Shown here: positions 7,018 through 49,368 of the stretch, piece by piece | How the letters are laid out: each line of letters begins with the position of its first letter | Position numbering within the stretch: position 1 is the stretch's first letter | Source: Bilabrum cf. latius | Lineage: Eukaryota | Length of the DNA: 64,000 nucleotides | NCBI GenBank assembly: GCA_965178125.1 | Contig: OZ237748.1 | Coordinates: forward strand, 248,001-312,000 | Direction of reading: 5' to 3' | Notes under the pieces: model-generated | The model's input: only the letters and a program-made list of their open reading frames with translations | Databases searched by the model: none | Told to the model about the DNA's origin: nothing | Made by a program: the position numbers and the translations under genes

Positions 7018-8325
7018 TAAATTAGATTTAAAAATATAGATGTCATAGAATCTTGCCGGAAGGATAAAATGTAAGTGGCGCGATTTTGGAAAAGTCATAT
7101 GTGAAAATCTTACAAGTAAGATAAATGGAAATGAAATTATATTAAGACAATTTGATGAACAGCATAAAGATGGAAAAATTGAATTATCATTTACAACAGA
7201 TTATAAGGCAAACCAAATAATAGATATGCTTAAAGACTTAAGTGAAAAAAGACAGCATATTATCTTAGAACACGCAAAATACCAGCTGAGGCGAAGAAAT
7301 ATAGAACAATAGGAAGAAGCACACGAAGACCGACCAGAAGAAGACCATGACACTCCCGAAAGTGATAATGATTGTAATAGTAATGGCGATGATGATAGCG
7401 AAAATGATAGTAATAGTGATGATGATAGTAATAGTTGAACTCTGCTGCGAATCAATGAGTGCTCCTTCTACATGCCCAATGGCCAAATCACGGACCCGCT
7501 CCCACAGTTGGGGCAGTTCCATAAAAAAAACAAACAGGACGTCCCTGCGCCCGTCCCGCGCCCTCTCCCCCCCACGAGGGACAGTCCGCCCCGAATCGAC
7601 TGGTTCTCCTCAGTCGCGTCTCGCGCATGCTATACCACACTCGCCACAAATGTACACGCTACCCCAATCCTTGCATCGTCTGCGCCTCCAGGCTCGCTCC
7701 GATGCCTCCCCTTCTAGTCCTGCCCCATTCTGATCTGCTGTCTCCCTACGCACCCGTACGTCTCAGCCTTCGCCAGAAATCCTACTGCCTTGTGGTCTGG
7801 CCCCACTCGGCTGCCTCCGCTGCCCCTCCCTCCCCATGGGCCTCCACGCTCCCGAGCCCTACTGGCTTGCTCGGGCCTGTCCGTGCCCCTTCGTCGTCCC
7901 CGCCACGCGTCTGGTTAACCGCGCTCGGGGCATCCCGATCCTCCCCTTTCCTCCGTTCATCTTGGAATCCCCCTCTCCGTCGCCTCCCCCGGTGCCACCC
8001 GACCCCTTGGTGGGCCGCCGCCCGTCCACCCTGTCACCTCCGCCAAGCTCCCCCGTCTGCTCCTGTCCCCCTCTCACCTGGCCCCCTCGCTGTCACCTCC
8101 CGCCGTTGTTGTCCTCCACCTGCACGTGCGCTGCTGCTGTACCCTCCCCGTCGGAGCCCCCATCGCTGTCTCACAGCCCTCAATCCCAATGTCTGATGAC
8201 ACAGATAAGATGATGATAGCGATTGTGATAACAATGACAATAACCAACAACAAGAATCTAGAATTTGTTCTGCTAGATGTCCTAGAATTACAGCTTCTCA
8301 ACTAAGAAGATTACTTTTTGGTTAA
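7010..8325 (+). pseudogene. V1 hypothetical protein with D/N/S-rich tract, interrupted by a solo Ngaro repeat
   Basis: Removing 7436-8208 restores the frame ...DSNS|DDDSDC... to TAA. Confidence 0.7.
7436..8208 (-). mobile_element. Solo A-B terminal-repeat remnant of the Ngaro-B family
   Basis: Near-identical to 39809-40580; starts TGAACTCTG, ends ACACAGATAA; no target-site duplication. Confidence 0.9.
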
Positions 8326-8383
8326 TAGAATTTAAAAAGATAGTTTAAAAAAAAATTAAAAAATATCTAGTAATTATATACAA

Positions 8384-8755
8384 ATGGAACAATTACAAAA
8401 AGTAATAAACACAAGGTCTAAATTAAAAAATGAGTTTTTAGATATCGTTGATGATTTCAAGAAAACTAATCGTGAATTAGAACAAAAGTTAAAGCAACTT
8501 AAAATAAAAGAGACGGAATTAAAAAATAAAGTGAATAGTAAATTAATCGCTTTAAATGTGGAATATAAAGAGGTAAGCAAAAAGAAAACAGAAGCTGTAG
8601 CCCCTTATATGAAAAGTTTAAAAGAATTAAAGGGGCGAATGGATGGACTCACTAAGAAAGAAAAATTAAAGCTGGTTGATATCCATTAGGAGATAAGAGA
8701 AACGAAGGAGCAAATTAAAGTGAATGAAGCTATTGATAGGCTTTTTAACCCGTGA
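8384..8755 (+). CDS. V1 coiled-coil hypothetical protein
   Basis: K/E/L-rich frame read through one TAG to TGA. Confidence 0.6.
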
Positions 8756-8795
8756 ATAATTAATTTATAAATATTAAAACTATTTAATATATATA

Positions 8796-9950
8796 ATGAG
8801 TAAGAGAGGTAGAAAAAAAGAGGATGAGATAAACGATTAGTCATTTGGATTTAATACCAAAAGCTTAACAAAAGATTTAATGAAACCAGTAAAGGAACCA
8901 AAAGGATAGAATTATATAAAATATTATAAACCGACAGAGGCTAATTTAATATAGCAGGCTGATTTACTTTATTTACCTTACGCAACTGATAAGGATTCAA
9001 AATATTTGTTAGTGGTTATAGACACTAGCGGGTTAGGTTTAGATTTTGAGGCTTTAGAGAGTAGAAGCGCGGAAGATATAGTAAAAGCATTTAAAAGGAT
9101 ATATAAAAGGAAGTATTTAAATATTCCAAAAATGATAAGAACGGATAAGGGGGGTGAATTTGATAATGGAGATTTTAGGGAGTATTTAAAGGAGAATAAT
9201 ATAGAACATATTTTTTCAAGAGTGGGTCGTAAATCTTAGATGGCGTTAGTGGAAAGATTAAATGAGGAGATAGGGACAGCGATATTTTATTATTTGAATT
9301 CACAGGAGATAAAAACAGGGACAACGATAACGACTTGGAGGCATTTAATACCAAAGCTGAGGGAGATATTAAATTAGCGTTATAAATCCAGATAGGAAAA
9401 GTTGAATGAGAAAAGGGAGAAATTACCATTTAAACCGCCTAGATGTCAGGGTAATACGTGTGATATATTAAATGAGGGGGAATATGTGAGGATAGCTTAT
9501 GATTATCCTAGAAGTATAGAGGGGATAAAGGAGATTGGAAAGTTTAGAGCGGGTGATATTAAGTATTCTATTAAACCTTATAAGATAGAAAGAGTAATAA
9601 TAAAGCCGGATTACCCACCATTATATAAAATTGAGGATATACCATATACATATTTTAATAGAAATTAGCTATTAATAGCGTCTAAACCATATGATAATAA
9701 AGCTTAGGATATATTTATAATTGAAAAAATAATTAGAAAGAATAAAAATAATACTTACCGTGTTAAATGGAAAGATTCAATTACAGATGAGGCTACAAAG
9801 AATAAATATAAAAAGTAGATAGATAAAATAATAAGAATAATAAAATCAGGAGATGGAGATGTGAAGTATTTGATAAAATGGAAACCTACGACAGAACCGG
9901 CGTCAAATATATCAAAGACAATGAAAGATTTATTTAATAAAAAGAAATGA
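8796..9950 (+). CDS. rve (DDE) integrase with C-terminal chromodomain-like repeats
   Basis: QADLLYL (D), IRTDKGGEF (D), ALVERLN (E); C-terminal IEKII..YRVKWK and IDKII..YLIKWK; continuous only with TAG=Gln. Confidence 0.9.
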
Positions 9951-9995
9951 ATATTATTATTAATAAATTTAATAATAAAAATTTGAGTTTATTAT

Positions 9996-10613: not shown

Positions 10614-10657
10614 TATATATATCTATAGAAAACAAAATTATTACTATCTATAGACTA

Positions 10658-13467: not shown

Positions 13468-16400
13468 TATCTGATGCTATTCAGTGTCAGTTGGATGTCT
13501 CTTTCAGTCAAGGTTTGGCAAGTCAACAGACATGGCAGTGACAAGGCCGTCCGACGCTTGGTGGAACGGCGCAGTCGCTGCGAAAATCTGCCCAGGGAGT
13601 GGTGGGTGGGTAACAACAAGCAAAGCTCGTGGACCGACCTGTCTCCCTCAGTGTCGAGACAACTCTGGACAAGCAGGAAACTCCGATGAGTGGTCGGTGG
13701 CGCCGCGCAACCGCTCAGCGGAACATGCAAGAGACCCTGATCACAGTGTCGCATCAGAGTCGAACGCTTCGCGTTAGGTATCTGATGCTATTCAGTGTCA
13801 GTTGGATGTCTCTTTCAGTCAAGGTTTGGCAAGTCAACAGACATGGCAGTGACAAGGCCGTCCGACGCTTGGTGGAACGGCGCAGTCGCTGCGAAAATCT
13901 GCCAAATCTGCCAAATCTTGTGTGTTGGTGATGATGTCCAAGGATCGTCCAGATGTCGTTGGATTCATCACGTGAAAGGCGGCTCGGTTGGGACCATGCA
14001 TCGCTGTCTTCATCACTGTCACAGTCGACAGACACAGTCTCATCAGAGCAAGACGCCTTATCGTCGACGAGCACGTTCGGTTTTTGAACATGCGAGGCAC
14101 CTATCTGCATGGCCCTGCAAGGTGCGGTTGCAAGTGCCGTTGATAGCATGTTCGACCTAGCGGCAACCTGAGCATCAGCTGCAGGTGCCGCGGCGTGCAG
14201 CTCCGCAATAGCAGGCTGCTCCATCGTGCCAGCGGCAGCCTGAGCATCAGCTGCAGGTGCCGCGGCGGGCAGCTCCGCAGCAGCGGGCTGCTCCATCTTG
14301 CCAGCGGCAACCTGAGCATCAGCTGCAGGTGCCGCGGCGTGCAGCTCCGCATCCGCGGGCTGCTCCATCTTGCCAGCGGCAACCTGAGCATCAGCTGCAG
14401 GTGCCGCGGCGTGCAGCTCCGCAGCAGCGGGCTGCTCCATCTTGCCAGCGGCAACCTGAGCATCAGCTGCAGGTGCCGCGGCGTGCAGCTCCGCAGCAGC
14501 GGGCTGCTCCATCTTGCCAGCGGCAACCTGAGCATCAGCTGCAGGTGCCGCGGCGTGCAGCTCCGCAGCAGCGGGCTGCTCCGTCTTGCCAGCGGCAACC
14601 TGAGCATCAGCTGCAGGTGCCGCGGCGGGCAGCTCCGCAGCAGCGGGCTGCTCCATCTTGCCAGCGGCAACCTGAGCATCAGCTGCAGGTGCCGCGGCGT
14701 GCAGCTCCGCATCAGCGGGCTGCTCCATCTTGCCAGCGGCAACCTGAGCATCAGCTGCAGGTGCCACGGCGTGCAGCTCCGCAACGGTGGGCTGCGCCAG
14801 CTTGCCAGCGGCAACCTAGGCATCAGCAGTTCGTGCCTCAGGTGTCGGGCCAGGAGGCAAGGAGTCGTGTTGGGCGCGCGATGCGATTCCAAGTGGCCTG
14901 GAAGTCACTATGCTGCGTCGTAGGCGCGGGCAGTATGCGGTGACAGGCACAACATTGCAATGGCGTGCTCCGGGACAGAGCTTGAGCAACGAGCGGGCAT
15001 GCTGAGTCCGCCAACTGTTACCGGTTGGGTGCCGCCTACGGTACGCATCCCATTTGCAACTCGTCAAGACAAATGAAGCAGCGTCCGTGCTACTACCAGC
15101 GGCAACCTGAGCATCAGCTGCAGGTGCCGCGGCGTGCAGCTCCGCATCAGCGGGCTGCTCCATCTTGCCAGCGGCAACCTGAGCATCAGCTGCAGGTGCC
15201 GCGGCGGGCAGCTCCGTAGCAGCGGGCTGCTCCATCTTGCCAGCGGCAACCTGAGCATCAGCTGCAGGTGCCGCGGCGTGCAGCTCCGCATCAGCGGGCT
15301 GCTCCATCTTGCCAGCGGCAACCTGAGCATCAGCTGCAGGTGCCGCGGCGTGCAGCTCCGCATCAGCGGGCTGCTCCATCTTGCCAGCGGCAACCTGAGC
15401 ATCAGCTGCAGGTGCCGCGGCGTGCAGCTCCGCAATAGCAGGCTGCTCCATCGTGCCAGCGGCAGCCTGAGCATCAGCTGCAGGTGCCGCGGCGTGCAGC
15501 TCCGTAGCAGCGGGCTGCTCCATCTTGCCAGCGGCAACCTGAGCATCAGCTGCAGGTGCCGCGGCGTGCAGCTCCGCAGCAGCGGGCTGCTCCATCTTGC
15601 CAGCGGCAACCTGAGCATCAGCTGCAGGTGCCGCGGCGTGCAGCTCCGCATCAGCGGGCTGCTCCATCTTGCCAGCGGCAACCTGAGCATCAGCTGCAGG
15701 TGCCGCGGCGTGCAGCTCCGCATCAGCGGGCTGCTCCATCTTGCCAGCGGCAACCTGAGCATCAGCTGCAGGTGCCGCGGCGTGCAGCTCCGCATCAGCG
15801 GGCTGCTCCATCTTGCCAGCGGCAACCTGAGCATCAGCTGCAGGTGCCGCGGCGTGCAGCTCCGCATCCGCGGGCTGCTCCATCTTGCCAGCGGCAACCT
15901 GAGCATCAGCTGCAGGTGCCGCGGCGTGCAGCTCCGCAGCAGCGGGCTGCTCCATCGTGCCAGCGGCAACCTGAGCATCAGCTGCAGGTGCCGCGGCGTG
16001 CAGCTCCGCAGCAGCGGGCTGCTCCATCTTGCCAGCGGCAACCTGAGCATCAGCTGCAGGTGCCGCGGCGTGCAGCTCCGCAGCAGCGGGCTGCTCCATC
16101 GTGCCAGCGGCAACCTGAGCATCAGCTGCAGGTGCCGCGGCGTGCAGCTCCGCATCAGCGGGCTGCTCCATCGTGCCAGCGGCAACCTGAGCATCAGCTG
16201 CAGGTGCCGCGGCGTGCAGCTCCGCATCCGCGGGCTGCTCCATCTTGCCAGCGGCAACCTGAGCATCAGCTGCAGGTGCCGCGGCATGCAGCTCCGCATC
16301 CGCGGGCTGCTCCATCTTGCCAGCGGCAACCTGAGCATCAGCTGCAGGTGCCGCGGCGTGCAGCTCCGCATCAGCGGGCTGCTCCATCTTGCCAGCGGCA

Positions 16401-16860
16401 ACCTGAGCATCAGCTGCAGGTGCCGCGGCGTGCAGCTCCGCAGCAGCGGGCTGCTCCATCGTGCCAGCGGCAACCTGAGCATCAGCTGCAGGTGCCGCGG
16501 CGTGCAGCTCCGCATCAGCGGGCTGCTCCATCTTGCCAGCGGCAACCTGAGCATCAGCTGCAGGTGCCGCGGCGTGCAGCTCCGCATCAGCGGGCTGCTC
16601 CATCTTGCCAGCGGCAACCTGAGCATCAGCTGCAGGTGCCGCGGCGTGCAGCTCCGCATCAGCGGGCTGCTCCATCTTGCCAGCGGCAACCTGAGCAACA
16701 AGCAAAGCTCGTGGACCGACCTGTCTCCCTCAGTGTCGAGACAACTCTGAACAAGCAGGAAACTCCGATGAGTGGTCGGTGGCGCCGCGCAACCGCTCAG
16801 CGGAACATGCAAGAGACCCTGATCACAGTGTCGCATCAGAGTCGAACGCTTCGCGTTAGG
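13468..16860 (-). mobile_element. Non-autonomous Ngaro-like element (family C)
   Basis: Split direct repeats B 13468-13592 = 13779-13903 and A 13614-13778 = 16696-16860; TATCT present at both ends and at the internal junction; no RT or YR. Confidence 0.85.
14160..16696. repeat. 72-bp tandem repeats in two blocks (~14160-14820, ~15096-16696) encoding ADAQVAAGKMEQPADAELHAAAPA on the minus strand
   Basis: About 9 + 22 near-identical head-to-tail units with no spacers; minus frame 13754-16705 is continuous with TAG=Gln. Confidence 0.95.
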
Positions 16861-18028
16861 TATCTACACCCGTTAAAACCATATACAAATAGATTTATTC
16901 AGGAGAAAATCCATATTTAAAAGTTGATTTCTGGGCTTTTGATGGGAAATTTATAGATGAAATTAGCATAATTTATCATATAAGTGATTATGAAATAGAT
17001 TAGAACGAGGTTAAGGATGGATTAATTAAGGATGTAGATAAATATTATGGTTCTAATAATTTTAAAGTATTAAAAAGATTAAAAGATTTATTTAAATTGA
17101 GAGGAGAAAAAAATAACGAAAAGCGGGTTAATGAATTAATTGATAAAGAAGCCTTAGGATATTTATATTCTATAAGAATGAGATTAGAAAGTATGTTAAG
17201 AATAAAAGGATATCAAAAGGAAAAGAATAAATCATTTTAGAGCCTTAAAGGATTAATGAGAAAATCACTTGGAGAAGTAGAAATTATTAAAAAACACTTT
17301 TCTAAGTATTCTAAAGGTAATATTAACAGCATTATAAGGTGGATTGACCAATACATTAACAGGAAAACAAGAGCAGAAATTAAAAATATAATTATGTCAT
17401 TATAACTTTTTTTGTGATAATGACTAGAACAAGCTACCAACTGAAATTTTTAAACACGGATAAATGAATAATATTTTTTATTGAATTAATATATATAATG
17501 TTATCTTTACAATACACACAAAATAGCCATATTGTAGCTATTCAAAAATACAAAAGAACAGAACAAAACCGCTTTATTTACTACGACCCAAACGCAAATG
17601 ACATTCAACACGTCAAAGCAGAAGAAATAACCGACGATGTATTAAAATCATATTATGGAGAAAGCAGGGTAAGATATAATGTTGATAAAGACAAGAAAAG
17701 GGAACAATTACATAAACTATTACAAGACGAATATATACGCTCAGTATAGGAATTTATAATAAAAGATAAAAGCCACTATTTACCTTTTCCTATGCTTTAC
17801 CCTTAGGGGCGTGAATATGTGCGATTATTTGGTAAAAGTGGTAGCGGTAAAAGTCATTTAGCCTTACATTACATACGGATGTATAAAGGATTAAAATATA
17901 AAAATATGTATGTCATATCACCTATTCAAGACCCAAAATATAAGAGAGAAGGGGCATCATTCATAGATATTGATGATTTAGTTAAAGAAAATGAAAATTC
18001 AATTTATTGATCCTAACGCCGGATGGGG

Positions 18029-18642
18029 ATCTATCACTGCGAGATTGTTTCGTCTTGGTCTACAGTCCTCGCTACGATGTTTGACTCTCATGGCGGTGGC
18101 GTATTGCCACCTTTGAAGACACGCGTGTGTCTAGTGACCGACCTGGCTCTATCTCCAGGTCATGTGCTAGTGGTCGGGCAGCCCTGGTATGGGCTGCCGA
18201 GTCACCATGCCTCACGGCTCTGCCAAGACTTGGATTGTCTTGGCGAAGCGGTTACAACCGCTAACAGCGTGAAGCAACAGCCTAGTATCGATTCACTGCC
18301 AGTCAGTGCTTGCCCCGCCGTTACCAGCTGGTCCGAACGGGCTCCCTAAGCGGGCATGCGAACGGAAACCGGCTGTGCAAATCAGCTCTTGTTCAAAACA
18401 TCAAGCAGTGGGAATCACCTCCTATGGAGTTGCCCCTGCCTGTCTTCCCAGTGTGTATTGCCACATAATGACAATTATTACTGAGAATATCGGGGCACAG
18501 CTGTAGAACACAGGTGCCACCGAAATTCCGAACAAGTGAGAGCCTCACATCTGTGCTCGGACTTGCGACCAATACTACACAATCTCTCCGATCTAAATCA
18601 CTTCGTAACGTGCCTCCGTACCTACGGCACACAACTGACGGG
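18029..18642. mobile_element. Unclassified ~614-bp insertion inside repeat A1 of element D
   Basis: Absent from A2 (GGATGGGG|TTCGG); GGG at both ends; first ~50 bp resemble host intron sequence 2584-2633. Confidence 0.65.
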
Positions 18643-18798
18643 TTCGGTGTTGATGCCAGAGTGGGAGCGCGTGAACGTCTCGTTGGGTTCCGATGGCGGT
18701 TGCGACCGGGAAGGTGCGACCAAGCCAACGGATTGCTTGCGATGACGCGCATACCCTCTCTGTGTTCAGGAGAGGGGCGGAGATTGGGTAATTTTTGC

Positions 18799-19323
18799 CA
18801 CAACGCCGACGGCCCAGCCAAGTTCTCCATCCAAGCCGCAGAGCCCATCGCAGTCCATTGCAGAGCCGGACGATGGGCAGTCACAGGCAGCAGGTTCTGC
18901 GGCGTGCGAGCCTTCGTGGCGTGGGCAGCAGCGAGCCACGCCCCAACTGCAGGCGCAGACGAAGACTACGCCCGGTAGCTGGCGCTCAGCTGCCCCACGT
19001 CAGGGCCAGTCTTCGTGGCGAACACGAAGCCGATCGTCAAGGCGCAGGTCGTACGGGCGCTCCGCAGCTTCTGCTCACGAGAAGTTGCAGGAGCGGTGCA
19101 CGGACATTCCATCCGCATCGCGGCAGTGATGTGTTTGGACCGTGCTGGGGTCGCCTTCGAGGTCATTAGGCGATTCGGCAGATGGAAGTCGGCATCTGCA
19201 TGCGAGGTGTACTTGCGGGGCGTCAGGGAAGGCTTGCCTCCTCTGGAGCTCGGCGGCAGGAGCCTCGATTTGAACAGGCCAGTGTGGGTGCTGGCCAGCG
19301 CGCTGCGGCTGAACTTGGAGTGA
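18799..19323 (+). pseudogene. C-terminal fragment of tyrosine recombinase
   Basis: RFCGVR, GHSIRI, GRWKS, EVYLR motifs; N-terminal catalytic Arg region missing. Confidence 0.85.
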
Positions 19324-26309: not shown

Positions 26310-26312
26310 TCA
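26267..26312 (-). promoter_or_regulatory. Putative stop-codon readthrough signal: UGA-CUAG plus stem-loop
   Basis: TGA CTAGCCAAGGG GGCCGCGCTGGGCA CTCA TGCTCGGCGTGGCC: 14-bp stem including G-U pairs; conserved in Ngaro-B. Confidence 0.75.
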
Positions 26313-29544: not shown

Positions 29545-29882
29545 TTACTACGACCATTTAATTTAGACCCTAGAAATTTATTAAATAGTTTCAATATAAC
29601 CGCTATATTAAATCTATACGATGACAATATCCACAAATTGCGAATAATTATATAGTATTTCTAGCAAAACGTGGATGTAGGGGGTCAAGTGAAGGTGAAA
29701 TGAAGATATGAACCCTTTTAATAAAAATAGTTCCATCGTTTTAGAAGGGCGATTTTTCATCCTTCTAAATTCAATCTAAAAAATTCAATAAAATATAAAA
29801 GTGAAGGATAAAATTTAAAGAACACAATCTAACAAGGTTTATTATAAAAAAATTATTTGTATAGCATTAATATATAAATAAA

Positions 29883-36150: not shown

Positions 36151-36702
36151 ATGTGTAAAAAGTGTATTGAACGAATAAAGGAACATACCGGTGATATAAA
36201 ATGGATGGACATTTAGAAGAAATTAATTTATATTGGTTCAACCGTGATTCAAGGTGATAAATTGGGTAATTGTATTTGTGGGCACGAGATACGAACCGAG
36301 CACAAAATAGAGCATCCACCAAGTGGATATGTATTTAATGTGGGTTCCAGCTGTATAAAGTAGATGATAAAGGATAAAGAAAATGAAATTCGTAAAAAAT
36401 GCTTATATTAGAGGTGTGGCATTTGTAAAAAAAATGTAGCTAGAGACCGATTTAAAAAGCATTGTGAAGGTATAAGGCATAATGAATTAGAAAAGAAATA
36501 GAAGGATTTAGAAGAGAAAAGGAAGAATGAAAAAAGATGTGAAGTGTGTTTTTGTAGAATGAATAAAGATGATTGGAGGACGACCTGCAAGTCTTGTTTT
36601 ACGATGGCAAAATATGGAAAAAAGGCGTGTAAAAAATGTAAAGTGTCTAGAATAAAAGATATGAGATATTCAATTTGTTATAAATGTTATATTGAAAAAT
36701 AA
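36151..36702 (+). CDS. Cys-rich zinc-finger protein
   Basis: CICGH..VGSSC and several CxxC; homolog at 50107-50637. Confidence 0.75.
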
Positions 36703-37000
36703 TAATTAGATATTAATGATAAAATTAATATTTAACATAATGATGATGGAAGTTAGAAGGGGCTATATTACAACCTTCTAAAGTGATTGAACTTTTGGGC
36801 TAGAAATACATGTATATTCTTATCACCATCATAAAATTACGATATCCACGTTTTGCTAGAAATACTATATAATTATTCGCAATTTGTGGATATTGTCATC
36901 GTATAGATTTAATATAGCGGTTATATGAAAAATATTTATTGTATTCTAGGGCCTTTATTTGATGGTATCATTATATATTAATAAGAAAATTAATATGTAA

Positions 37001-37765
37001 TTAAAAATCTCCTAGAGCATTATTTATCTATTCTCTAAAAGCTTCTTCATCATCGGGTTCATCTTCTGGCTTCTTGACATTACGTTTATTGTCCCTGTCT
37101 TTCTTCTTCTTATTCCTCTTTTTGGTTTTTTTGGCTCTCAATGGCTTTTCTTCTTCTGGTTCCTCTACTTCCTCGGGTATAAATTGACCGTATGACAAAT
37201 TTATATATTTGATGGCTTTGTCCTTCTTTTTAATTGTCATTATGGGGTCTTTACTCTCAAAATTTCCTGTATAATAAATCGGGGGCTCACTAGAAAACAT
37301 ATAAATGTATGGAACAAATGGATTTTTGGCGCTGTCGGTCTTCATATCAGGGGTTAGATACAAACCATTTAATTCGTCTTCATCCACTAGTTCAAATTTA
37401 TCTTCTACGGTATTATTAAAAAATATCCCTTTATGATCCTAACGCCGGATGGGGTTCGGTGTTGATGCCAGAGTGGGAGCGCGTGAACGTCTCGTTGGGT
37501 TCCGATGGCGGTTGCGACCGGGAAGGTGCGACCAAGCCAACGGATTGCTTGCGATGACGCGCATACCCTCTCTGTGTTCAGGAGAGGGGCGGAGATTGGG
37601 TAATTCTTGCCATGTCTGATTGTTAACGAGACTAGGTTGCGCGTACACTCTGGCATCAAAAGTTTTAAAGAAGAATTGATTAATATATTTCTTGGCTTTC
37701 TTTACGGCTCCTTCTTCTAAAAGTTCCATTAATTCACTAGGTTCATAACTTTGAAAATTTGACAT
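37001..37765 (-). CDS. Hypothetical protein carrying an in-frame 225-bp Ngaro-D remnant
   Basis: Frame stays open across the insert with TAG=Gln; ends at TAA. Confidence 0.65.
37434..37658 (+). mobile_element. Mini solo A-B remnant of family D
   Basis: Matches 19494-19665 fused to the end of B; starts TGATCCTAAC, ends CTGGCATCA. Confidence 0.9.
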
Positions 37766-37857
37766 CCTATATATATAATTAAATAATATAATCTTTAAGT
37801 CATTTTAAACGCGTTTAATTGGCTTAAAAATTAAATTTCTATAGTATATATAGGTAA

Positions 37858-38202
37858 ATGGTAAAATCAAGTGATGTTCGTATAGTGAAAACCCAGCTTA
37901 TTAAAAATAAAAAGCCCGTGTTCAGTTTTATATTTCCAAAAAGAGATACAGATGATGGATATAACGAGCTTGAAATGACAACCATATTAAAGGCATACAT
38001 TAAAAGGCTACTACAGCAAAAACCCCATCTAAAAAATTATGATGGATATATTAGTTCTCTTTATGCTGTTGGTTGGAGAACAGGGGCCCCGTTTAAATTA
38101 AGTAGTGATGTTAGTTTATTTAATCCATCCTCCCGCTATGTCTTCTTAAGTGATGAACCGGTTAAAAAGTTCGTATTATTTGTATCCGCTCCTAATCCAT
38201 AA
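37858..38202 (+). CDS. Hypothetical protein upstream of pPolB
   Basis: ATG..TAA 114 aa with the shared promoter motif. Confidence 0.6.
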   Translation: MVKSSDVRIVKTQLIKNKKPVFSFIFPKRDTDDGYNELEMTTILKAYIKRLLQQKPHLKNYDGYISSLYAVGWRTGAPFKLSSDVSLFNPSSRYVFLSDEPVKKFVLFVSAPNP

Positions 38203-38280
38203 TTACATTTTATAATTTAAACTTTATAAATTGTGTTTAAAATGGCTTAAAAAATATATAATACTATAGTATATAAGAAA

Positions 38281-39777
38281 ATGAATTATACAAATGTATT
38301 AAAGCAATTGAATATATGTTTTGGTAAGGCATATGACAACCCGATAAAAAGCATAAAATATTTAGAAAAGGTTTTTAATAATAAACCTATCACCACTAAG
38401 AATATATATAAATTGGTTCAAGGTTTGAAAATAGATATAGAAATTAGAGAGAAAACCGATATTAAGGTCTATAATCTTAGTAAATAGAAAGATAGTTTTA
38501 AAAGGGTTTGTTTAGAATATAAAGATGGAATGTTTAAAGCCGTCCAGAGGATGAAGCCATTATTTACCCGATGCTATAAATCTATGGTTGTTAAATTAAC
38601 CGATAAAGCGGAAATATTGGAAGATAATAAATATAGAGTTGAAAGCTTAATGGATTATCACACTAAAAAATATTATTTAAAATATACAATTCATAAATGT
38701 CCCGAGAATGAGGATATTAAAGAATGGTCCTTGAGGTTAAGCGTAGCCAGTGATGAATTACACGACGATAACCCATCCTTAAACATTATGAAATATGGAA
38801 TCAGACAAACAGCCTTACATTTTTTTACAATGTTTAATATGATGACAGAAAGCCCACCGGAAATAACCCCAGAAGAGGCGGTATTTATTGAAGGAGCAAC
38901 ACGAGGAGGCATTCAATACCATCAAAAAGGACAATACGATGAATTTATCACCTATGATATAAACAGTCATTACCCTTTTATTATGTCATCTAGTTCATTA
39001 TTACCATATGGAAAACCTATTTATAAAAAAATGGAAAATATCCAAATAACAAAGAATAACGAAATAGGAATTTATAAATGTAAAGTAAGTAGGGGAAAAT
39101 GCGAACCAAAATTATTTAATATGTTTAAAGTATTTGAAAATGAATTTACATATTATGTTTTTACAGATATGAATATATTTATTAAATATGGTTATGAAAT
39201 TGAAATGTCTAATGATAAATTTAATTTTATGACCTATGACAGATATATTAAGGGGGAAACCCTATTTAGTAATTATGTTTAGATGTTTTATAAATTAAAA
39301 GAAAAATCATATCTAGCAAAAGAAATATTAAATTCATTATGGGGTAAATTATGTAGTTCTAAAAAAAAAATTATTACATCAAATGATAAAAATATTAATA
39401 TTGACAAATTTAATATTGACAGAATTGAAATGAACGAAGAAGGGGATGATTTTATTTATCATCTAAAATATAAGGTTCCTTTTAAATATAGTTGGGGTAA
39501 AATAAAGCCGTGGATATTGAGTTATTCAAGATCTAAGATAATGAAAAAAGTTAATAGTAAGAACATACAGCACGTTGTAAGAATTCATACCGACAGTATA
39601 ACATTTAGTAAAAGATTAAATTTAAAAATAAGTAAAGATTTAGGAGGTTATAAAATAGAATAGGCGAATCAAAAGAATCAAAAAATGATTCTTTACGGGT
39701 AGAATGATTTAGTAATTGTAAATGAAGAGAACGAAATAATAAAAAGAAAAGGTAAGAAGACGGGGTTTATTTTTTAA
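38281..39777 (+). CDS. polB: Short protein-primed-type family B DNA polymerase
   Basis: TRGG, YDINSHYP, KEILNSLWGK, IHTDS; 498 aa with TAG=Gln. Confidence 0.88.
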
Positions 39778-40666
39778 ATATATAAATAAATATTAAATAT
39801 ATAAAATGTGAACTCTGCTGCGAATCAATGAGTCCTCCTTCTACATGCCCAATGGCCAAATCACGGACCCGCTCCCACAGTTGGGGCAGTTCCATAAAAA
39901 AACAAACAGGACGTCCCTGCGCCCGTCCCGCGCCCTCTCCCCCCCACGAGGGACAGTCCGCCCCGAATCGACTGGTTCTCCTCAGTCGCGTCTCGCGCAT
40001 GCTATACCACACTCGCCACAAATGTACACGCTACCCCAATCCTTGCATCGTCTGCGCCTCCAGGCTCGCTCCGATGCCTCCCCTTCTAGTCCTGCCCCAT
40101 TCTGATCTGCTGTCTCCCTACGCACCCGTACGTCTCAGCCTTCGCCAGAAATCCTACTGCCTTGTGGTCTGGCCCCACTCGGCTGCCTCCGCTGCCCCTC
40201 CCTCCCCATGGGCCTCCACGCTCCCGAGCCCTACTGGCTTGCTCGGGCCTGTCCGTGCCCCTTCGTCGTCCCCGCCACGCGTCTGGTTAACCGCGCTCGG
40301 GGCATCCCGATCCTCCCCTTTCCTCCGTTCATCTTGGAATCCCCCTCTCCGTCGCCTCCCCCGGTGCCACCCGACCCCTTGGTGGGCCGCCGCCCGTCCA
40401 CCCTGTCACCTCCGCCAAGCTCCCCCGTCTGCTCCTGTCCCCCTCTCACCTGGCCCCCTCGCTGTCACCTCCCGCCGTTGTTGTCCTCCACCTGCACGTG
40501 CGCTGCTGCTGTACCCTCCCCGTCGGAGCCCCCATCGCTGTCTCACAGCCCTCAATCCCAATGTCTGATGACACAGATAATGAACTCTGCTGCGAATCAA
40601 TGAGTCCTCCTTCTACATGCCCAATGGCCAAATCACGGACCCGCTCCCACAGTTGGGGCAGTTCCA

Positions 40667-41830
40667 TTACTTTCCAATACTTGCAGCAGTTGCAGCGTGG
40701 TCCAGCGCTGCCGTCCACACCCGTGTCGGCTGAGTGAGGTCAACCGAGGAGGGGAGTGGCAGGGGCCGAAGCGCGAAGATGTTCTCGTTCCGGTAGCGGC
40801 GGGCTGCCACCAGAGTCTTCCAGGCACCCGCGCGCATGATGGTGTCGTCCGAGCAGCCCTGCCTACTCAGTGTGGTGATGGCCGTCACGCGCAGGGAGTG
40901 GCCCGACAGGTGCAACTGGGGCCGACCGCAGCACCGGCGAAACTCCGCGATCACTGTAGCCGCCCCGCATCGGGCTGGTGCGAACAGGTACGCTGGTCCA
41001 GTCGATGGGCGGTGCTCGAGGAATCGGCGTAGAGCCGCCACCGATGCGATGCCATGTGCGGCGCGCAGGTACTCCAGCAAGATGCGGACACCGCAAAAGC
41101 GGGCGCCGTGGGGCTGGCCACCGACGTACCGCACCGGACGGACGCTGCTCAGCATCAGGGAGCGCGTGTCCCGCGACTTGTTGGGTCCCAGCAGGATCTC
41201 GATGGAGCTGACGGCACCGTCCGAGTCCACGCCCACCACCAGGTGGCCCCGTGCCATCCCGCGCTGCTCGTCACCCACAGTCGCCTGGGCGATTTCGCCC
41301 AGACGTGCGGCGCTGAAGAAGGCTACAGCCGCTGCCGTGCGAGCCGCGTGCTCCTAGGGTCCCCGTGGCCGTGCGGTGAACCACACAGCGAGCCGATGCA
41401 GGTCAGCCGGGTGCTTGCGCCCAGAGGCGGCCTTGGAGGCCACCGGGCCGCCCGGTGCCGCTGCCCTGGCCATGTGGGTGGCGAAGTACGACAGCAACGA
41501 GCGCAGACGCTTGGACTGGCCACCCGGCAGGCCGTGCAAGATCACGAACGCCCTGAACACGGTGCTGACGTATGAGCGCAGAGTCGGTCCACCGATCGTG
41601 CCCGTGCGGTCCTCGCCGCGCCACACCGCGTACCTGCAGCACGCGATGTCGAGCGCCCGTTGCGCCCTCAGTGGGTCCTCGTAGCCTGCACACGGGTCCT
41701 CGGCTTCCCCGCGGTCCCGACGGAATTGTTCGAATCCACGGAGGGCTGTAGCCCCTGAAGCCAGACCTTTAGCGCCACCGCCCGAGAGCGCCCGAACCGT
41801 TGCATACACGTCCAGATCCACGGCGGACAC
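40667..41830 (-). CDS. Ngaro-B tyrosine recombinase
   Basis: Collinear with the Ngaro-A YR; TAG at 41354 aligns with Gln. Confidence 0.92.
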
Positions 41831-44800
41831 CGCGCCCGCTCCACCGTCTCGCCCCAGCGGAGGTAATGGCGAGGCGAGAAGTTCCGAGAGAGAGCGTCCG
41901 CCACGAAGTTGGCCTTGCTGCTCACGTGCTGCGAGAAGAGCTGGAAGTCATGGCGTGTCACGGTAGTGAACAACGGCCCCAACAGTCTGTTGAGGCACAG
42001 GCGGCGTGCAGAGCCCTTGCGAAGAGAAGTACACACAGGCAGATTGTCCCCGTACACGGTCACGTTCCTGCCCGCGAGCTCCGGTGCCCACCGCTGCACG
42101 AGGAGCACCACGGCCGCCAACTCGGCTTGCGGCATCTGACTGGGGCCCACAGTGCGTGGCCAGAATCCCTGGACGAGGCGCCGGCCGCGATGACTATCGC
42201 CCGGAGTGCCGTACAGCTGCAGTGTCCCCCCGAACCCTTCCTTGCTGGCGTCCACGTACATCACTGCCCGAGGTCCCCGATGTGGGGACGTGGGGAACCG
42301 GCGTGAGCGGTTGGCCTGCACGCTGGCACGCAGGGTCCTGAGTGTGTCGAGGATCGGCCGGTCCAGCTGGTGAGGGCCCCCCCGCAGCGGCATGCGGTGC
42401 TGGGCACACTGCAGGAGCCCGAGCTGGGGCTTCAGGCACACCAATGCCCCCGCTGCAAACCCCAACTCTCCGATGACGGACTTGAACTCCAACGACGTGG
42501 ACACCGCCCCGGCCTCGATGATGGATGTCAAGCGCTTCACCAGAGCCTCCTACTTGGCCTGCGGCAGGGCGATCCGCAGTGCGGCGAGGTCCAGCTCGTA
42601 CCCGAGGTAGGTGAGCACGGAGCGGGGATGTTCCCCACGCGCCTTGGACCGTGAGATGGGGAAGCCCAGGTACTCAGCCTCGGACATGAGCTGAGCCGTC
42701 ATCCATGGGGCCCGGGGTGCGGCAGCGAGAAGCAGCTGGTCGTCGCTGAAGACGGTGGTTGCACACGGCGCGCGCGGGAGGGCGAAGCTGCAACGCTCAC
42801 GGAATCTGCGGTTGAAGGCGGTGCTGGTTAGACAGGCCCACCCCGGCGAGGACGCCGAGCCCATGCTGAGGACAGCGTAGAGAGCTGCCCGGTCCCCCGT
42901 CTTGGACCACATGTGACACGCGTCCGCCAGCCGAAGCTTGAGCGAGAAGAACCACTTGGAGAAGTCAATGGCGGCACCATGCATCGCCACCCCTGCTGGA
43001 AGCTAGCGGTGGAACTTCACGGCCTCCTTCATGACCACGGTGATGTCGTCGAGCAAGCACGGCGTGTACTGCCGGTAGTCCACAAAGCCATTCACGCCCT
43101 TCCCCGTGGTGGAGCTCTCGCGGGCGGACGCGTCCACGATGGCGCGATACTGCCCTGCGGCCTTCTTGGCGATGTAGCTGGTGAACGAGATGCGAGATGG
43201 CGGCACCTCGTGCTCGGCCAGTGGCACGATCCAGCCGGCACGGACAGCGGCACCGTGCGCCAGCTCAGCATGAGTGCGCGTGGCAGCGTCTGAGTAGCGT
43301 GTCTGCTCCACCGCCGCGTCCCGTGGACTGCCCGCGCCGGGGTCAGTGCAGAGTGGGAAGCCGTAGCGGATGCCGGCCACGGCCGCCTCATACAGAGACA
43401 GCGCCTGCCAAGCCGCCGGTCCCCGAGGTTCCGTCGGGGGACAGCGCACGCCGAAGAAGGACTCCAACCGGCGCAGACGAGCGCCCGTGCAGCGGTGGCC
43501 CCGGACAGAGCCGCGGGCGATGGCCACGTCAGCCATCGGGTCGAGGAGCAGTCGGTGTCTGGCGAACTCAGCAGCCGGAGCTGAGGACACGCGGCGCAGC
43601 GGCGCGGAGGTGAAGTCGGCCAAGCGGGTGGAGGGGATGTCCTCGGCCGTCCTGGCTGTGGGAAGCGGCGGCTCCGCAGCAGCGGCGGCAGCCATGCGGT
43701 GCAGCACTCGAGGCAGCGTGGAGCGTTGCCACGTTGCCCGGTCGCGACGTGCACGGTCCTGCACAGCAGGGTCCAGCAGAGAGGGCACCGGCTTCAAGCG
43801 GCGGGAGGAGCTAGCGATCGTCGCGGAGAGGCCGGCTGCCGTCAGGTGTGCCTGGGATGAGGCAGGACCCGTCCTGGTGATGGCTAAGTCCGAGGCGAGA
43901 TCCGACCGTGCTGTCTGCCCGACCGCGCGTCCCTGCCGGGGCGCCACGCGAGCCCCACCAGCATGGCTGACACCGCCCGCCATGATCTCCTGCCTGCTCT
44001 CGACTCCTCCACCACGGCTGACACCGTCCTCCACGATCTCCTGCCTGCTCTCGACTCCTCCACCACGGCTGACACCGCCCTCCACGATCTCCTGCCTGCT
44101 CTCGACTCCTCCACCACGGCTGACACCGCTCTCCACGATCTCCTGCCTGCTCTCGACTCCTCCACCACGGCTGACACCGCCCTCCACGATCTCCTGCCTG
44201 CTCTCGACTCCTCCACCACGGCTGACACCGTCCTCCACGATCTCCTGCCTGCTCTCGACACCTCCACCACGGCTGACACCGTCCTCCACGATCTCCTGCC
44301 TGCTCTCGACTCCTCCACCACGGCTGACACCGCTCGCCACGATCGCCTGCCTGCTCTCGACTCCTCCACCACGGCTGACCCCGCCCTCCACGATCTCCTG
44401 CCTGCTCTCGACTCCTCCACCACGGCTGACACCGTCCTCCACGATCCCCTGCCTGCTCTCGACTCCTCCACCACGGCTGACACCGTCCTGCACGATCTCC
44501 TGCCTGCTCTCGACTCCTCCACCACGGCTGACACCGTCCTCCACGATCCCCTGCCTGCTCGCGACTCCTCCACCACGGCTGACACCGTCCTCCACGATCG
44601 CCTGCCTGCTCTCGACGCCGCCAGTGCCGCTGATATGGTCCGCCCCGACCGCATCACGTGCACCCCTGCGGTTCGCCGCGGAGTTGGTGGCGGCAAGTGC
44701 ACGATGGCCGGCCCGGTGGGCCCGTGACCATAACGTCGGCAATTTCCAAGATGACCAGAAGCGCCCCCTGGCTTGGGGCGCCGTTGCATTGCGTGGCGGT

Positions 44801-45649
44801 CTGTACGACCGCCCCCGCACCTCAGCCCCTCCGTGCCGAGGTCTACAGATCTGCCCGGTGGGCAGACTGGGTCCCTCCTTCCCTCCCGCCCCATCCTCCG
44901 TTGGGGCACGAGTGAGCTTCGCCTCTCCAGTGAGGCTAGCTGCCGCAAATTGCAACGAGGCACCCGAGGGCACCTGCTGCGCGGGAGTCGATCCTGTCAC
45001 TCCCCAAGCCGCGTCCTGCAGTGCAGCATCCTCCCCGTGCTGCCCGCCGAGCCCCCAGCCCCCCGCTGTGGCCCTCCCATTCCACGTGACCGGTGCTGCC
45101 GGCCACCACGTCGATCCAAATGTCAAACTGCCCCCCCCAGCCCCAGGTCTGTCCCCACGGACCCTGCCCAGGCCATCCCCCCCATCGCCAGCACCCACCG
45201 GCGCCATCCCCCGCAGGGGCTGCACCCCCCCACGGTGCACCCCACGGAGATGGCCAGCCGCGACCCCACCGGCGCGCGGCTGCACCCAGGACGGGGAGAC
45301 GGCCACATGGCCGCCACCCCGCCGCCCGTGCATCCCGCGTGCGCCCTGCCACCCGCTCCACCGGCGCCCCGTCAGCGCACCCCATCATCTCGCCGTCCGC
45401 CGCCCCCCCGGCGGCCCTCCGCACCTCGCTGCCCGCCCGCACCACCACCGCTGCCGCCGGTCCCGCCGCCACCCCGGCGTCCATCCCCCCCGCCCCTGCC
45501 GCCCGCGACGCCCGCGCCCTCACCGCCACCTCCCCGGCCGCCGCCGCCACCCGGCGGATGCCAGCGCCCGTCCTACTCCGGCATCGCCTCTGGTGGCGAC
45601 GGCGGAGGCCGTGCCGAGCGTGAACACCCAGCGCGGCCCCCTTGGCTAG
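41668..45649 (-). CDS. Ngaro-B ORF2 RT/RNase H, with an apparent 1-nt frameshift at the C8 run 45131-45138
   Basis: Same RT/RNase H motifs as family A; homology switches frame at WGWGG|SLTFG. Confidence 0.85.
43963..44620. repeat. 51-bp tandem repeat in ORF2 (GGGVESRQEIVEDGVSR)
   Basis: About 13 units. Confidence 0.9.
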
Positions 45650-45652
45650 TCA
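45604..45652 (-). promoter_or_regulatory. Putative UGA-CUAG readthrough signal plus stem-loop (Ngaro-B)
   Basis: TGA CTAGCCAA GGGGGCCGCGCTGGGTG TTCA CGCTCGGCACGGCCTCC. Confidence 0.75.
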
Positions 45653-47632
45653 GTCACCGAAGATGGACCGCCAGTCGCGATCCACATTGGGGGTGCCGTC
45701 GGCGCGGCGCCGCGACGTGTCCGGTTCCGCATCGATGTCGGCCACTCGCTGCATGCACTCGACCAGCAGTCCAGGGACACCGTTCACGGTGTCGAAGGGG
45801 GCCAGGAGCCGGGTCAGACCGGCGTGAGGCAGCGGAGAGGTGGCCGGGTCACGCCACCAGCGGCTGCCCGCTGCCCACGCCGCGCAGCTGCGGAGGCGAT
45901 CACCCGCGCGCAGCACGTTCTAGCCGGGGGTGAGCTCGGAGCCCGCCGCGGTGTCATACACCCAGCACATCACCTGCTCCGGGACCGAGGTGGCCTGCCG
46001 GAGGGGAGTGGTGGTCCCCACCGTCGCGACCATCCTTGCCATGGAGCTCGAGCGGGCCCACAGGTCACCCACCGTGCCCAGCTCCGGCGTGGCCAGGTCA
46101 CGGCTGCGAGGGGCGCCTGGCTGCGAGGCGTGCCCGATGAGCGTGCGCCGCATGGCCAGGGCTTGGCACGACCGATGCACCCAGATGCCCTGCACGACTG
46201 CTGCCAGCTTGCCCGAGCCGCTGCCTGCCCCCGCCCGGAGCAGCCCGATGGTGGCGTACGGTTCACGCCGCTGCAGGGCGGACCCCAGGGCTGTCACCGC
46301 GGTGACGAAGGAGGCCAGGGCTGCCTTGCCCGCAGATGGGGCATTCAGGGCGCGCTCGCCGGCCTTGCCACCACACACCGCGTCCACCATGGCAGCCAGG
46401 ACGTCAGCGAACTAGGCAGGGCAGCGCAGGGGCTCCAGCGTGAGCAGCCTGAGGTCGTGCTCCAGAGCCGCACGAAGGAAAGTGCGGACCCCCTCGCGCA
46501 CGAGGCGGCTGTCTGGGGGCGGCGCGGCCCCCGTGGCGTCGATCAGTGCGGCCGTCGTGTGAGCCAGCGAGGTGCCTGTGGGGGAGCTAGAGGGTTCAGG
46601 GACGGAGCCAGCCGTGACCGTGTACGTGGGGGGACAAGCGTCGGTTGCAACCGTCTCACCGGGGGGTTGGGCCGCCGTGGGCCGGGGGAACGCCGCCGCC
46701 TCGCCCATAGCGACGAGGAGCGGTAAGACGGAGCCGCCCTCCAGCGGGCGCTTGCGGTACAGGTCAGTGGCCTGCTGAGCCAGCTCCTGGATGGCGTCGC
46801 GTGGGGCCATAGCTGCCAGCATGTGGAACAGACCGAGCGGGGCTGCGGGGCCGGCGGAGTACTTCAAGCCGCGCAGAATGACCTCAGCCCAGAGTGCCGG
46901 GACTCCGGTCTACAGGCGAGTCTGGAGCCGGCGGGCCGCCTCGGCGAACTCGGCACGATGGACGTCAGGTAGCGGCGGCAGGGGCCCACTCAGGGCGGGC
47001 AGCGAGCCCACGTCGATGACCAGCAGGAAGTCACTCATCAGCGCCGCGGCATTGGCCAGCACGGAACGAGCGGGCCCGCGCCCAAGTGCATGCCCCGCCG
47101 ACTTGCCCAGAGCCACAGCCTCATCGTCATCCGCTTGGCCCAGCGGGATCCCATCCAAAGAGCCGGCGTCCGCGTCCGCCACGGCGTCCGCCTTGGGCAG
47201 CTGAATGTCCTCACAGATAGAGTCGAGGCGCGTGGACAGCAGCGGAAAATTTGCATGCGTCACGGTCAGGAATGAAGTAACGTAGTCCCGAATCTCCGTC
47301 TGCAGGGCTTCGAATTCCGCGGACCCCAGGCTTTCGGGATCGATGGAGGCCAGCGCGATGGTCATGTCGCCAAGTCGGCGAGTCGCCCAGCGGTCATCCC
47401 AGAGGCAACGAGGCTCCGCGTCCCCAGACGATTTACTCGAGCGAGCAGCAGTCGAATCAGCTGGAGCAGCTGCGTCTGGCACTGCGGTTTGCAGCCACTT
47501 CACTGTCAACGGACCGGACAAGTCTTGCAACGGGGCCAGGATTAGCCGAAATGCCTCACCAGCCCGCCCTGTGCGGAGTGCAACCTGTACAGGGGCAACA
47601 TATTCAGCCATTCCCGTAGCTGCAGAAGACAT
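45650..47632 (-). CDS. Ngaro-B ORF1 (gag-like by position)
   Basis: Single frame with three TAGs; ends SIFGD-TGA. Confidence 0.8.
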
Positions 47633-48929
47633 AGCTGCGGACAGTCCGCCCCGAATCGACTGGTTCTCCTCAGTCGCGTCTCGCGCATGCTATACCACAC
47701 TCGCCACAAATGTACACGCTACCCCAATCCTTGCATCGTCTGCGCCTCCAGGCTCGCTCCGATGCCTCCCCTTCTAGTCCTGCCCCATTCCGATCTGCTG
47801 TCTCCCTACGCACCCGTACGTCTCAGCCTTCGCCAGAAATCCTGCTGCCTTGTGGTCTGGCCCCACTCGGCTGCCTCCGCTGCCCCTCCCTCCCCATGGG
47901 CCTCCACGCTCCCGAGCCCTACTGGCTTGCTCGGGCCTGTCCGTGCCCCTTCGTCGTCCCCGCCACGCGTCTGGTTAACCGCGCTCGGGGCATCCCGATC
48001 CTCCCCTTTCCTCCGTTCATCTTGGAATCCCCCTCTCCGTCGCCTCCCCCGGTTCCACCCGACCCCTTGGTGGGCCGCCGCCCGTCCACCCTGTCACTTC
48101 CGCCAAGCTCCCCCGTCTGCTCCTGCCCACCTCACCTGGCCCCATCGCTGTCACCTCCCGCCGTTGTTGTCCTCCACCTGCACGTGCGCTGCTGCTGTAC
48201 CCTCCCCGTCGGAGCCCCCATCGCCGTCTCACAGCCCTCAATCCCAATGTCTGATGACACAGATAATATTTTGATTAATTTTTTTGACTTACCGTTCATT
48301 TTATTGACCACTTAACGGGATATCACAAAAAGACTTAACCACTTGACGAGATATTTTAAAATAACTAATAATAAATATGACCGCCCCAAATTGCGGAAAT
48401 ATATTTACTTAACATATCTCTTTTTTTATTACTTGTCAATCTATACTTAAATAATTGAATATTTAAATATAACTAGAAGGAGATATTAATCACTTTATAA
48501 AGTCTTTGATATGTCATCTCTTCAAAACTTCAAATATAAGGGTATCCCCTTAAAATACATCCTTTAATCTATCGCCCCAAATTGTATCTCCAGATATGAC
48601 CGCCCCAAATTGTATCTCCAGATATGACCGCCCCAAATTGCGGAAATATATAAGTATCAAGAAAATTATGTTTGCAATTCTGGGCGCTCACCCGTATTCA
48701 ATTTTACATATTCACTAACTCATACCACTTGAAGTGGTCCATTTGATCTTGTGTTCATATTTAGAATGTCCTTTAACTTGTATCAATGTATTGAGTACTT
48801 CTTCTAACTAGTCCTTAACAAATGATTTTGTCTTATGATATGTCTTGGTAGTCTTCACCTATTTAATAACTAATTTACAAGTCTTACCGACAATATACTA
48901 AGTTAATAAATCTTGTATCATAATATATT

Positions 48930-49337: not shown

Positions 49338-49368
49338 ACTATTAAATTAAATACATTTAATAATATAA

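Follow-up and report, generated by a model that had tools for sequence, protein, structure and literature searches.

A stretch of 64,000 nucleotides from a Bilabrum cf. latius contig (OZ237748.1, positions 248,001 to 312,000; here called the window) holds seven insertions in or next to a mavirus-like virophage, V1. Very probably, V1 resided in the chromosome of a protist and underwent repeated, recent invasions there by Ngaro-type retrotransposons of the host itself, members of two lineages. A preliminary description of the window had claimed seven Ngaro-type insertions from four families, concentrated in V1 and absent from a second virophage, V2, and from the host flank, in a host with a recoded genetic code. 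We located the insertions by self-BLAST, by reading out their junctions and by comparing their repeats. All seven positions were recovered to within 8 nt of those given there (33964 became 33956).

By composition, the window comprised three kinds of DNA: a host-like flank, AT-rich DNA from position 3906 to the window end (GC 0.30-0.32), and seven GC-rich blocks (GC 0.57-0.68), all of them embedded within the first AT-rich half. Read in the standard code, the AT-rich DNA contained almost no long open reading frames (ORFs). With TAG as a sense codon and TAA and TGA as stops, it resolved into a compact, non-overlapping gene set, and it is from these genes that we assign it to mavirus-like virophages. 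The virophage DNA surrounding the insertions had a GC content of 0.30. The GC-rich blocks correspond to two full-length elements, E1 and E2, two elements devoid of enzymes, C and D, and three solo repeats, solo A, solo D and a truncated solo (Table 1). Six of them lie inside V1. E2 is located at the V1/V2 boundary and can be assigned to neither virophage.

The insertions are real and precise. In silico excision restored the ORFs for five of the six insertions that lie in or adjoin an ORF. The V1 ATPase gene was indeed hit twice, as had been claimed. D splits it after codon 170, with the next codon rejoined in frame upon excision, and E1 separates it from its very end; the three pieces align to or read on like the V2 ATPase, and the ending obtained after removal of E1 resembles the V2 C-terminus. 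Excision of 13468-16860, that is of C with one TATCT kept, restored an ORF of 272 aa, the length of the V2 homologue at 57826-58644. Without solo A, a 180-aa ORF with an acidic tail was recovered. Solo D lies within the minus-strand gene 37001-37765, where it is in frame and free of stops and adds 75 codons (254 aa with it, 179 aa without). Excision of the truncated solo (33956-34644) restored no recognisable ORF. E2 is intergenic, 30 nt past the stop of the polymerase-like gene; part of E2 and its flanks is contained in 16 sequence runs, which belong to 9 studies, with no RNA run among the matches listed. For three insertions the excision was clean and left no target duplication. In C, the pentamer TATCT was found at both ends of the element (13468-13472 and 16861-16865) and once at the internal B1-A2 junction (13779-13783), and it occurs once in the restored target; such a pattern would suit a core of 5 nt at which a recombinase crosses the element into its target.

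Identical repeat copies are hard to assemble, and one might suspect that GC-rich repeats were mis-joined into AT-rich contigs. We consider such an artefact extremely improbable, since five insertions cut ORFs at single-base precision with the frames resuming exactly, which a mis-join would not produce, and since each element carries complete and ordered split repeats.

On the plus strand, the repeats of E2 are arranged as [a87-x55-b630][a87]...[b628], and those of E1 follow the same order, with 613 nt for the b module. Read along the minus strand, which is the coding one, both elements are A1-ORFs-B1-A2-x-B2. An A1-ORFs-B1A2B2 layout is the hallmark of Ngaro according to Hackl et al. (2021, eLife; PMC8547959). 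Both elements encode a gag-like protein (711 and 712 aa, labelled by its position upstream of the next ORF), a reverse transcriptase (RT) with RNase H and a tyrosine recombinase (YR). The Pfam family Phage_integrase (PF00589) matched the YR with 28.0 bits in E1 and 28.4 bits in E2, above the cut-off of 27.1, and the motifs SGHSLRV, AGAW and RRY aligned with the HxxR, W and Y of Cre, weakly so in both elements (E=0.006-0.05). In the translated RT, FSDD and DAS...E...D...D motifs can be made out. Among 1.84 billion representative proteins, 1,038 relatives of the RT were found at E<=1e-3, the closest with 35% identity when fragments of 94-99% identity are set aside; 13 of the 14 relatives sampled carried RVT_1, 3 of these together with RT_RNaseH. 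The relatives bear no family names. A word-indexed protein search returned nothing for the RT, metagenome contigs held no relative of it, and the 24-nt A/B terminus was not matched exactly by any metagenome, viral or prokaryote-genome contig. From their repeat layout and predicted enzymes, we classify E1 and E2 as Ngaro-type elements, YR retrotransposons of the order DIRS, in agreement with the type that had been proposed. The N-terminal part of the RT ORF contains an in-frame tandem array in either element, of 45 bp x 17.7 in E1 (24401-25196) and of 51 bp x 13.1 in E2 (43958-44623).

The four families had to be regrouped into two lineages of two subfamilies each, A with B (about 80% identity) and C with D (about 72%). 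Over 4 kb, the identity between E1 and E2 was 84%, and over another 2.7 kb it was 77%; their A-x-B units agreed at 614 of 772 positions (~80%). Nucleotide identity between A and B was 80-84%. This lineage is autonomous and comprises two full-length copies and two solo repeats.

C and D show the repeat order of E1 and E2 with shorter modules (A of 170 and 178 nt, B of 125 and 130 nt, x of 21 and 24 nt, respectively). In C, the B copies are 13468-13592 and 13779-13903, and the A copies 13614-13783 and 16696-16865; in D, A was found at 19494-19671 and B at 19364-19493 and 19696-19825. Neither element codes for RT or YR, and the interior of C consists of a 72-bp tandem array of 35 copies (14159-16697). 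Given the lack of enzymes, C and D must be moved in trans, by a partner absent from the window. Their B1-A2-x-B2 blocks were identical at 283 of 394 aligned positions, with an alignment score of 302 as compared to 208 +/- 9 for 100 shuffles, and the junctions, internal as well as end-to-end, read as nearly one word in both elements, GCATCA(T)GAT(A)CCTAACGC. Block alignment and junctions together make C and D one lineage, distinct from A/B, that comprises one solo repeat besides the two elements with their internal deletions or rearrangements. Both insertions of the D family are flanked by TTTA(T) and AAAG, which may be a hint, from two cases, at the target context.

The first A repeat of D is interrupted by a segment of 611 bp with a host-like GC content. 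The flank positions 2583-2633 were 94% identical to D positions 18020-18070 over 51 nt, and this block spans the left junction of the segment, including 9 nt before it and its first 42 nt. The claim of a host flank free of insertions thus holds for 1-3905, apart from this D-like fragment. Rfam and tRNA scans assigned no known RNA gene to the 51-nt block, nor did they give a match anywhere in the window. Either another round of nested insertion or capture of a sequence through template switching could account for the segment.

As to the mechanism, we propose that a circular DNA copy of the element, whose joined ends would be mirrored by the internal B1-A2 junction, was recombined into the target by the YR. 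For C, the observed TATCT pattern is what would remain if a circular copy recombined conservatively with a target that has the 5-nt core in common with it. Solo repeats would have arisen by recombination between A1 and A2 after insertion. The accumulation in V1 may reflect some preference or tolerance of the elements for AT-rich virophage DNA and, once the first hit had disabled V1, relaxed selection on its genes.

The repeats also carry information on age. Differences between paired repeats amounted to 0 of 613+87 nt in E1, 9 of 630 and 0 of 87 nt in E2, 1 of 170 and 0 of 125 nt in C and 0 of 160+130 nt in D, i.e. identities of 98.6-100%. The solos differed from their full-length relatives at 1-4 positions (2 for the solo at 7436 when compared to A2-x-B2 of E2, 4 for the solo at 33956 when compared to E2). 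Where V1 genes were not interrupted, their ORFs are intact and have a normal length. Near-identical repeats together with intact remaining genes indicate that the insertions are young and close together in time.

Why the insertions are found in V1 is a separate question. V2 is free of them, as had been claimed: neither BLASTN nor TBLASTX matched any insertion in 48267-64000 (15.7 kb), and a GC scan of V2 flagged only a window of 150 bp at 55951 and one gene, 61348-62013, neither of which matches an insertion. Without insertions, V1, V2 and the flank measure 20,426, 15,734 and 3,905 bp, a sum of about 40 kb. Under uniform insertion over this DNA, all seven would fall into V1 with P=0.009; six of six in V1 against V2 gave P=0.03, as did none in V2. 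The local GC content was 0.23-0.34 at each of the seven sites, but the same holds for all the surrounding virophage DNA.

The same distribution might come about without any targeting, if V1 were an old or dead copy in which neutral insertions persist, while hits in host genes and in active virophages such as V2 are purged and the density is in part a matter of ascertainment. We take this seriously as a possibility, while leaning against it. V1 is disabled, with the ATPase split twice and three further genes interrupted, whereas the V2 ORFs within the window are all intact and free of insertions; selection may thus account for the contrast between a V1 that was dead after its first hit and a V2 that looks intact. 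The solo repeats imply time enough for recombination after insertion, the flank is too short to give a contrast with host DNA (P(0 of 7)=0.49), and in the part of Hackl et al. available to us Ngaro types 3 and 4 of Cafeteria are mostly found in host DNA (PMC8547959). On the other hand, the intact uninterrupted genes and the repeat identity of 98.6-100% do not describe an ancient V1 but one hit in quick succession, and random insertion at seven per 20 kb would imply a very high load throughout the genome. According to the same source, types 1 (91%) and 2a (82%) moreover prefer endogenous mavirus-like elements (EMALEs).

The preliminary description had also considered hitch-hiking in virions, in which the retrotransposons enter a replicating or packaging virophage genome and reach the chromosome as its passengers, a question raised as open in the discussion of Hackl et al. 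(PMC8547959). E2, being intergenic, would by itself not disable a virophage. But a genome of 20.4 kb has gained 15.5 kb through the six internal insertions, bringing it to ~36 kb, and E2 adds another 8.5 kb (44 kb). With the packaging ATPase broken twice and the locus nearly doubled, passage in virions is very unlikely for this copy of V1. A GC content of 57-68% against 30% in the virophage, together with the near-identical repeats, fits a recent insertion into a resident copy, and a D-like fragment is present in host-type DNA while the neighbouring V2 has none.

Several points weigh against repeated invasion of V1 by Ngaro-type elements, or against parts of this picture, which we nevertheless prefer. 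The RT matches to RVT_1 (20.5 bits, cut-off 29.6) and RT_RNaseH (18.2 bits, cut-off 24.8) are sub-threshold, and the gag-like ORFs of E1 and E2 matched no Pfam family. C and D owe their Ngaro-type label solely to their repeat layout. Self-comparison found no long inverted repeat bounding V1, so that neither virophage has well-defined ends. The P values for the concentration are post hoc, come from one window picked for its odd look and treat events that are not independent. It may also just be that V1 is older, or dead. For the flank of 3.9 kb, 0.68 of the seven insertions are expected by chance (P(0)=0.49); it is too short for a contrast between virophage and host DNA. Finally, five of the seven insertions are genic here, unlike the bias to intergenic DNA described in the available text on Cafeteria (PMC8547959).

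The identity of the invaded DNA follows from its predicted proteins. The V1 major capsid protein (MCP) was matched by the mavirus MCP (PDB 6g45, E=1.2e-5) and, weakly, by Pfam MCP_V20_C (E=0.008); a word-indexed protein search, viral contigs and phage records yielded no relative of it. The V1 penton scored 35.7 bits against the Sputnik V18/19 penton family (Pfam V18-19, cut-off 27) and was 24% identical to that of V2. In the integrases, the rve domain exceeded its cut-off of 32.6 bits in V1 (44.9) and V2 (33.2), and the chromodomain its cut-off of 25.1 bits in V2 (30.3) but not in V1 (24.0). The ATPase has a Walker A motif and AAA-type Pfam matches below cut-off (25.2 vs 27.5), and the protease-like protein matched Peptidase_C57 (E=0.006). 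Pfam gave no match for the polymerase-like gene, in whose product we noticed, by eye, motifs resembling what we take to be DxxSLYP and DTDS. Integrase (rve with chromodomain), ATPase, protease-like and GIY-YIG proteins are encoded in both halves. In either of them, the genes are ordered as P-loop protein (-), large protein (-), 272-aa protein, ATPase, protease, penton, MCP. As their proteins are only 24-35% identical, V1 and V2 are two different virophages arranged head to tail. Their border lies within ~106 nt around E2, and the genes 37001-39777 are tied to the V1 genes by a promoter-like motif, which two V2 genes have as well.

Table 1. Features of the window, with positions counted from its first nucleotide.
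Feature	Position	Strand	Remarks
Host-like flank	1-3905	.	GC 0.525
Virophage V1	3906-39808	+	net 20,426 bp, GC 0.30 after removal of six internal insertions
Virophage V2	48267-64000	+	GC 0.315, insertion-free; right end beyond window
Solo A (A-x-B, family A)	7436-8208	-	773 bp; inside acidic tail of gene 7010-
Element C	13468-16865	-	3,398 bp, non-autonomous, split direct repeats
Element D	18008-19825	+	1,818 bp, non-autonomous, A1-internal-B1-A2-x-B2
Segment interrupting A1 of D	18029-18639	+	611 bp, GC 0.53 (host-like)
Element E1 (family B)	20335-28908	-	8,574 bp, full length
E1 tyrosine recombinase	21151-22293	-	
E1 RT/RNase H	22152-26111	-	1,319 aa
E1 gag-like ORF	26310-28445	-	
Truncated solo (family A)	33956-34644	-	689 bp; A and spacer x, without 87-nt B part
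Solo D	37434-37658	+	225 bp; entire 178-nt A and last 54 nt of B
Element E2 (family A)	39809-48266	-	8,458 bp, full length, intergenic, V1/V2 junction
E2 tyrosine recombinase	40667-41473 or longer	-	
E2 RT/RNase H	41668-45333	-	1,221 aa
E2 gag-like ORF	45650-47788	-	
V1 rve-chromo integrase	8796-9950		
V1 ATPase piece 1	17498-18007	+	aligns to V2 ATPase residues 1-175
V1 ATPase piece 2	19826-20334	+	aligns to V2 ATPase residues 178-328
V1 ATPase piece 3	28909-28960	+	last 17 codons and stop, in frame with piece 2 after E1 removal
V1 cysteine-protease-like	28969-29544		
V1 penton	29883-30833		
V1 MCP	30907-32778		623 aa
V1 GIY-YIG	32877-33674		
V1 polymerase-B-like	38281-39777		
V2 rve-chromo integrase	50998-52653		
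V2 ATPase	59506-60573		
V2 protease-like	60461-61141		
V2 penton	62199-63125		
V2 MCP start	63168-		
Promoter-like motif, upstream of	4191, 4859, 32877, 35239(-), 36151, 37001(-), 37858, 38281, 49369(-), 50107		
V2 intergenic repeats	48375-48404, 48620-48712, 52660-52782, 54134-54222, 55684-55869, 58633-58713, 58765-58840, 61138-61315, 62081-62161		

We considered the repeats at 3906-4074, 29553-29776 and 36745-36966 as terminal inverted repeats of a virophage and rejected them in this role: they are only 71-77% alike, present in three copies and placed between genes, as are the intergenic repeats of V2. On that reading, V2 would have included the polymerase gene together with solo D and E2. 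We describe them instead as a V1 intergenic element of 170-225 nt with an internal palindrome; the copy at 36745-36966 is inverted and has 34-nt direct repeats on either side (36702-36735 and 36967-37000).

The recoding of the host had been claimed in general terms. It is indeed seen, but restricted to TAG, which probably stands for glutamine, while genes still end at TAA and TGA. Across 32 virophage ORFs with a total of 8,599 codons, TAG occurred in frame 117 times and TAA and TGA not once, and 38 virophage ORFs ended with TAA (26) or TGA (12). The glutamine content of the virophage proteins rose from 2.6% to 4.0% when TAG was counted as glutamine. Between the Ngaro ORFs, a TAG in one copy stood opposite CAG or CAA in the other in six of eight informative cases, including two opposite CAA, which needs two changes. 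Apart from TAG, the retrotransposon ORFs contained no stops and no frameshifts, which speaks for TAG as a sense codon rather than a sign of decay. In the V2 integrase, the motif NP-TAG-SNG (NP-X-SNG-x-VER with TAG masked) places TAG opposite the Q of NPQSQ in a retroviral-type integrase (PDB 4pa1), and the V1 integrase has a TAG at the matching position. Two observations speak against glutamine or do not support it: the same TAG of V2 faces R in the Ty1 integrase (7z0h), and the V1-V2 alignments are too divergent to reveal the meaning of TAG (K 8, S 8, A 6, D 5, L 5, Q 5, others). Reading both TAA and TAG as glutamine (table 6) was dropped, as TAA bounds genes and is never found inside gene cores. 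All in all, host, retrotransposons and both virophages probably read TAG as glutamine and use TAA and TGA as stops.

In the accessible text of the literature searched, we met with no virophage that was said to use a variant code. It is tempting to extend the argument to the entire nested chain, and by implication to an unseen helper giant virus, as adapted to a nuclear code with UAG as glutamine and with UAA and UGA still as stops; these would then be the first variant-code virophages, and the Ngaros virophage specialists that home in via the gag-like protein or the YR, knock out packaging genes and so brake virophage spread. This scenario remains speculative and we consider it rather doubtful.

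Ngaro elements in endogenous mavirus-like elements were claimed to be known from Cafeteria, which Hackl et al. confirm (PMC8547959). They reported four Ngaro types in Cafeteria burkhardae, with about one in four EMALEs interrupted and one case of two adjacent Ngaros, besides solo AB repeats inside EMALEs. As in Cafeteria, GC-rich YR retrotransposons with gag-like, RT/RNase H and YR ORFs reside here in AT-rich virophages, several element types occur side by side and solo AB repeats are found within virophages. The case described here is denser, as the preliminary description had stated: one 20-kb virophage carries seven insertions, whereas the main text of Hackl et al. describes at most two adjacent ones. 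The elements are also longer (8.5-8.6 kb as compared to ~6-7 kb), and the main text there describes no counterpart to our two enzyme-less derivatives. An in-frame solo and the reading of TAG as glutamine by host, elements and virophages further set this locus apart. The flank has 52.5% GC, while the host genome of Cafeteria is called high-GC in that account.

The Ngaro superfamily within the order DIRS is defined in the same paper, which cites Poulter & Goodwin 2005 and Wicker et al. 2007. As far as that account goes, our elements conform to it in their split direct repeats, in a YR replacing a DDE integrase, in RT/RNase H and in the order ORF1-RT/RH-YR. Exact excision without target duplication, found here for three insertions, also fits. 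The long arrays of 45 and 51 bp inside ORF2 of E1 and E2 differ from it, as does a C-type element flanked by a 5-nt core that recurs at its internal junction. In long terminal repeat (LTR) retrotransposons and endogenous retroviruses, solo LTRs are single repeats left by recombination between terminal repeats. The analogy to solo AB repeats has been drawn by Hackl et al. (PMC8547959). Unlike a solo LTR, the unit here is the A-x-B of split repeats, in one case without B and in another an in-frame remnant of 225 bp that lengthens a virophage ORF.

Other mobile elements have been found in comparable positions. In Halocafeteria seosinensis, a related bicosoecid, Mutator-like elements (MULE) and long interspersed nuclear elements (LINE) reside in virophages and Ngaro is stated to be absent (bioRxiv 10.64898/2026.07.28.741278), and polinton-like viruses (PLVs) of cryptophytes contain RT-bearing GC-rich elements (PMC12220804). 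From what these sources offer in the parts available, they share with our locus the insertion of GC-rich host mobile elements into core genes or spacers of AT-rich integrated viruses and differ in the transposon classes; a variant code is not reported in those parts.

The locus hence represents nested parasitism of a known kind, and what is novel is its unusual density and, as the fresher point, the recoded virophages. Until now, descriptions of Ngaro elements in virophages came from a single genus. Another case, presumably unrelated in sequence and in a different genetic code, suggests that the association is recurrent or old and not an oddity of Cafeteria. With apparently intact full-length elements, enzyme-less derivatives, solos and an exact 5-nt core, the locus offers material for studies on targeting. 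With 117 TAG in 8,599 codons, these virophages could not express their genes in a host using the standard code, which bears on host range and on the interplay between variant codes and viruses. Gene callers set to the standard code break up such elements. Public protein fragments with 94-99% identity to the RT break off precisely where its ORF has the two TAG codons, and elements of this kind may therefore be systematically missed.

Some minor observations concern the virophage genes. The promoter-like motif consists of G-N-CTTAAA, followed after ~25 nt by TATATA right before the ATG, and is found at a subset of genes in both virophages; its presence in V1 and V2 suggests one transcription system. 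It is also the only hint that their replication may depend on a giant virus. V2 contains eight to nine intergenic repeats of 70-180 nt, in both orientations and mostly just 3' of genes, which may be hairpin-type 3'-end signals. The minus-strand V2 gene 61348-62013 has a GC content of ~0.47, well above its neighbours, and zero TAG codons; it may be a recent acquisition. In V1, the neighbouring genes 4191-4769 and 4859-5803 have a C-terminus of 43 aa in common with 93% identity, and the latter encodes a DUF285 repeat protein (E=5e-92).

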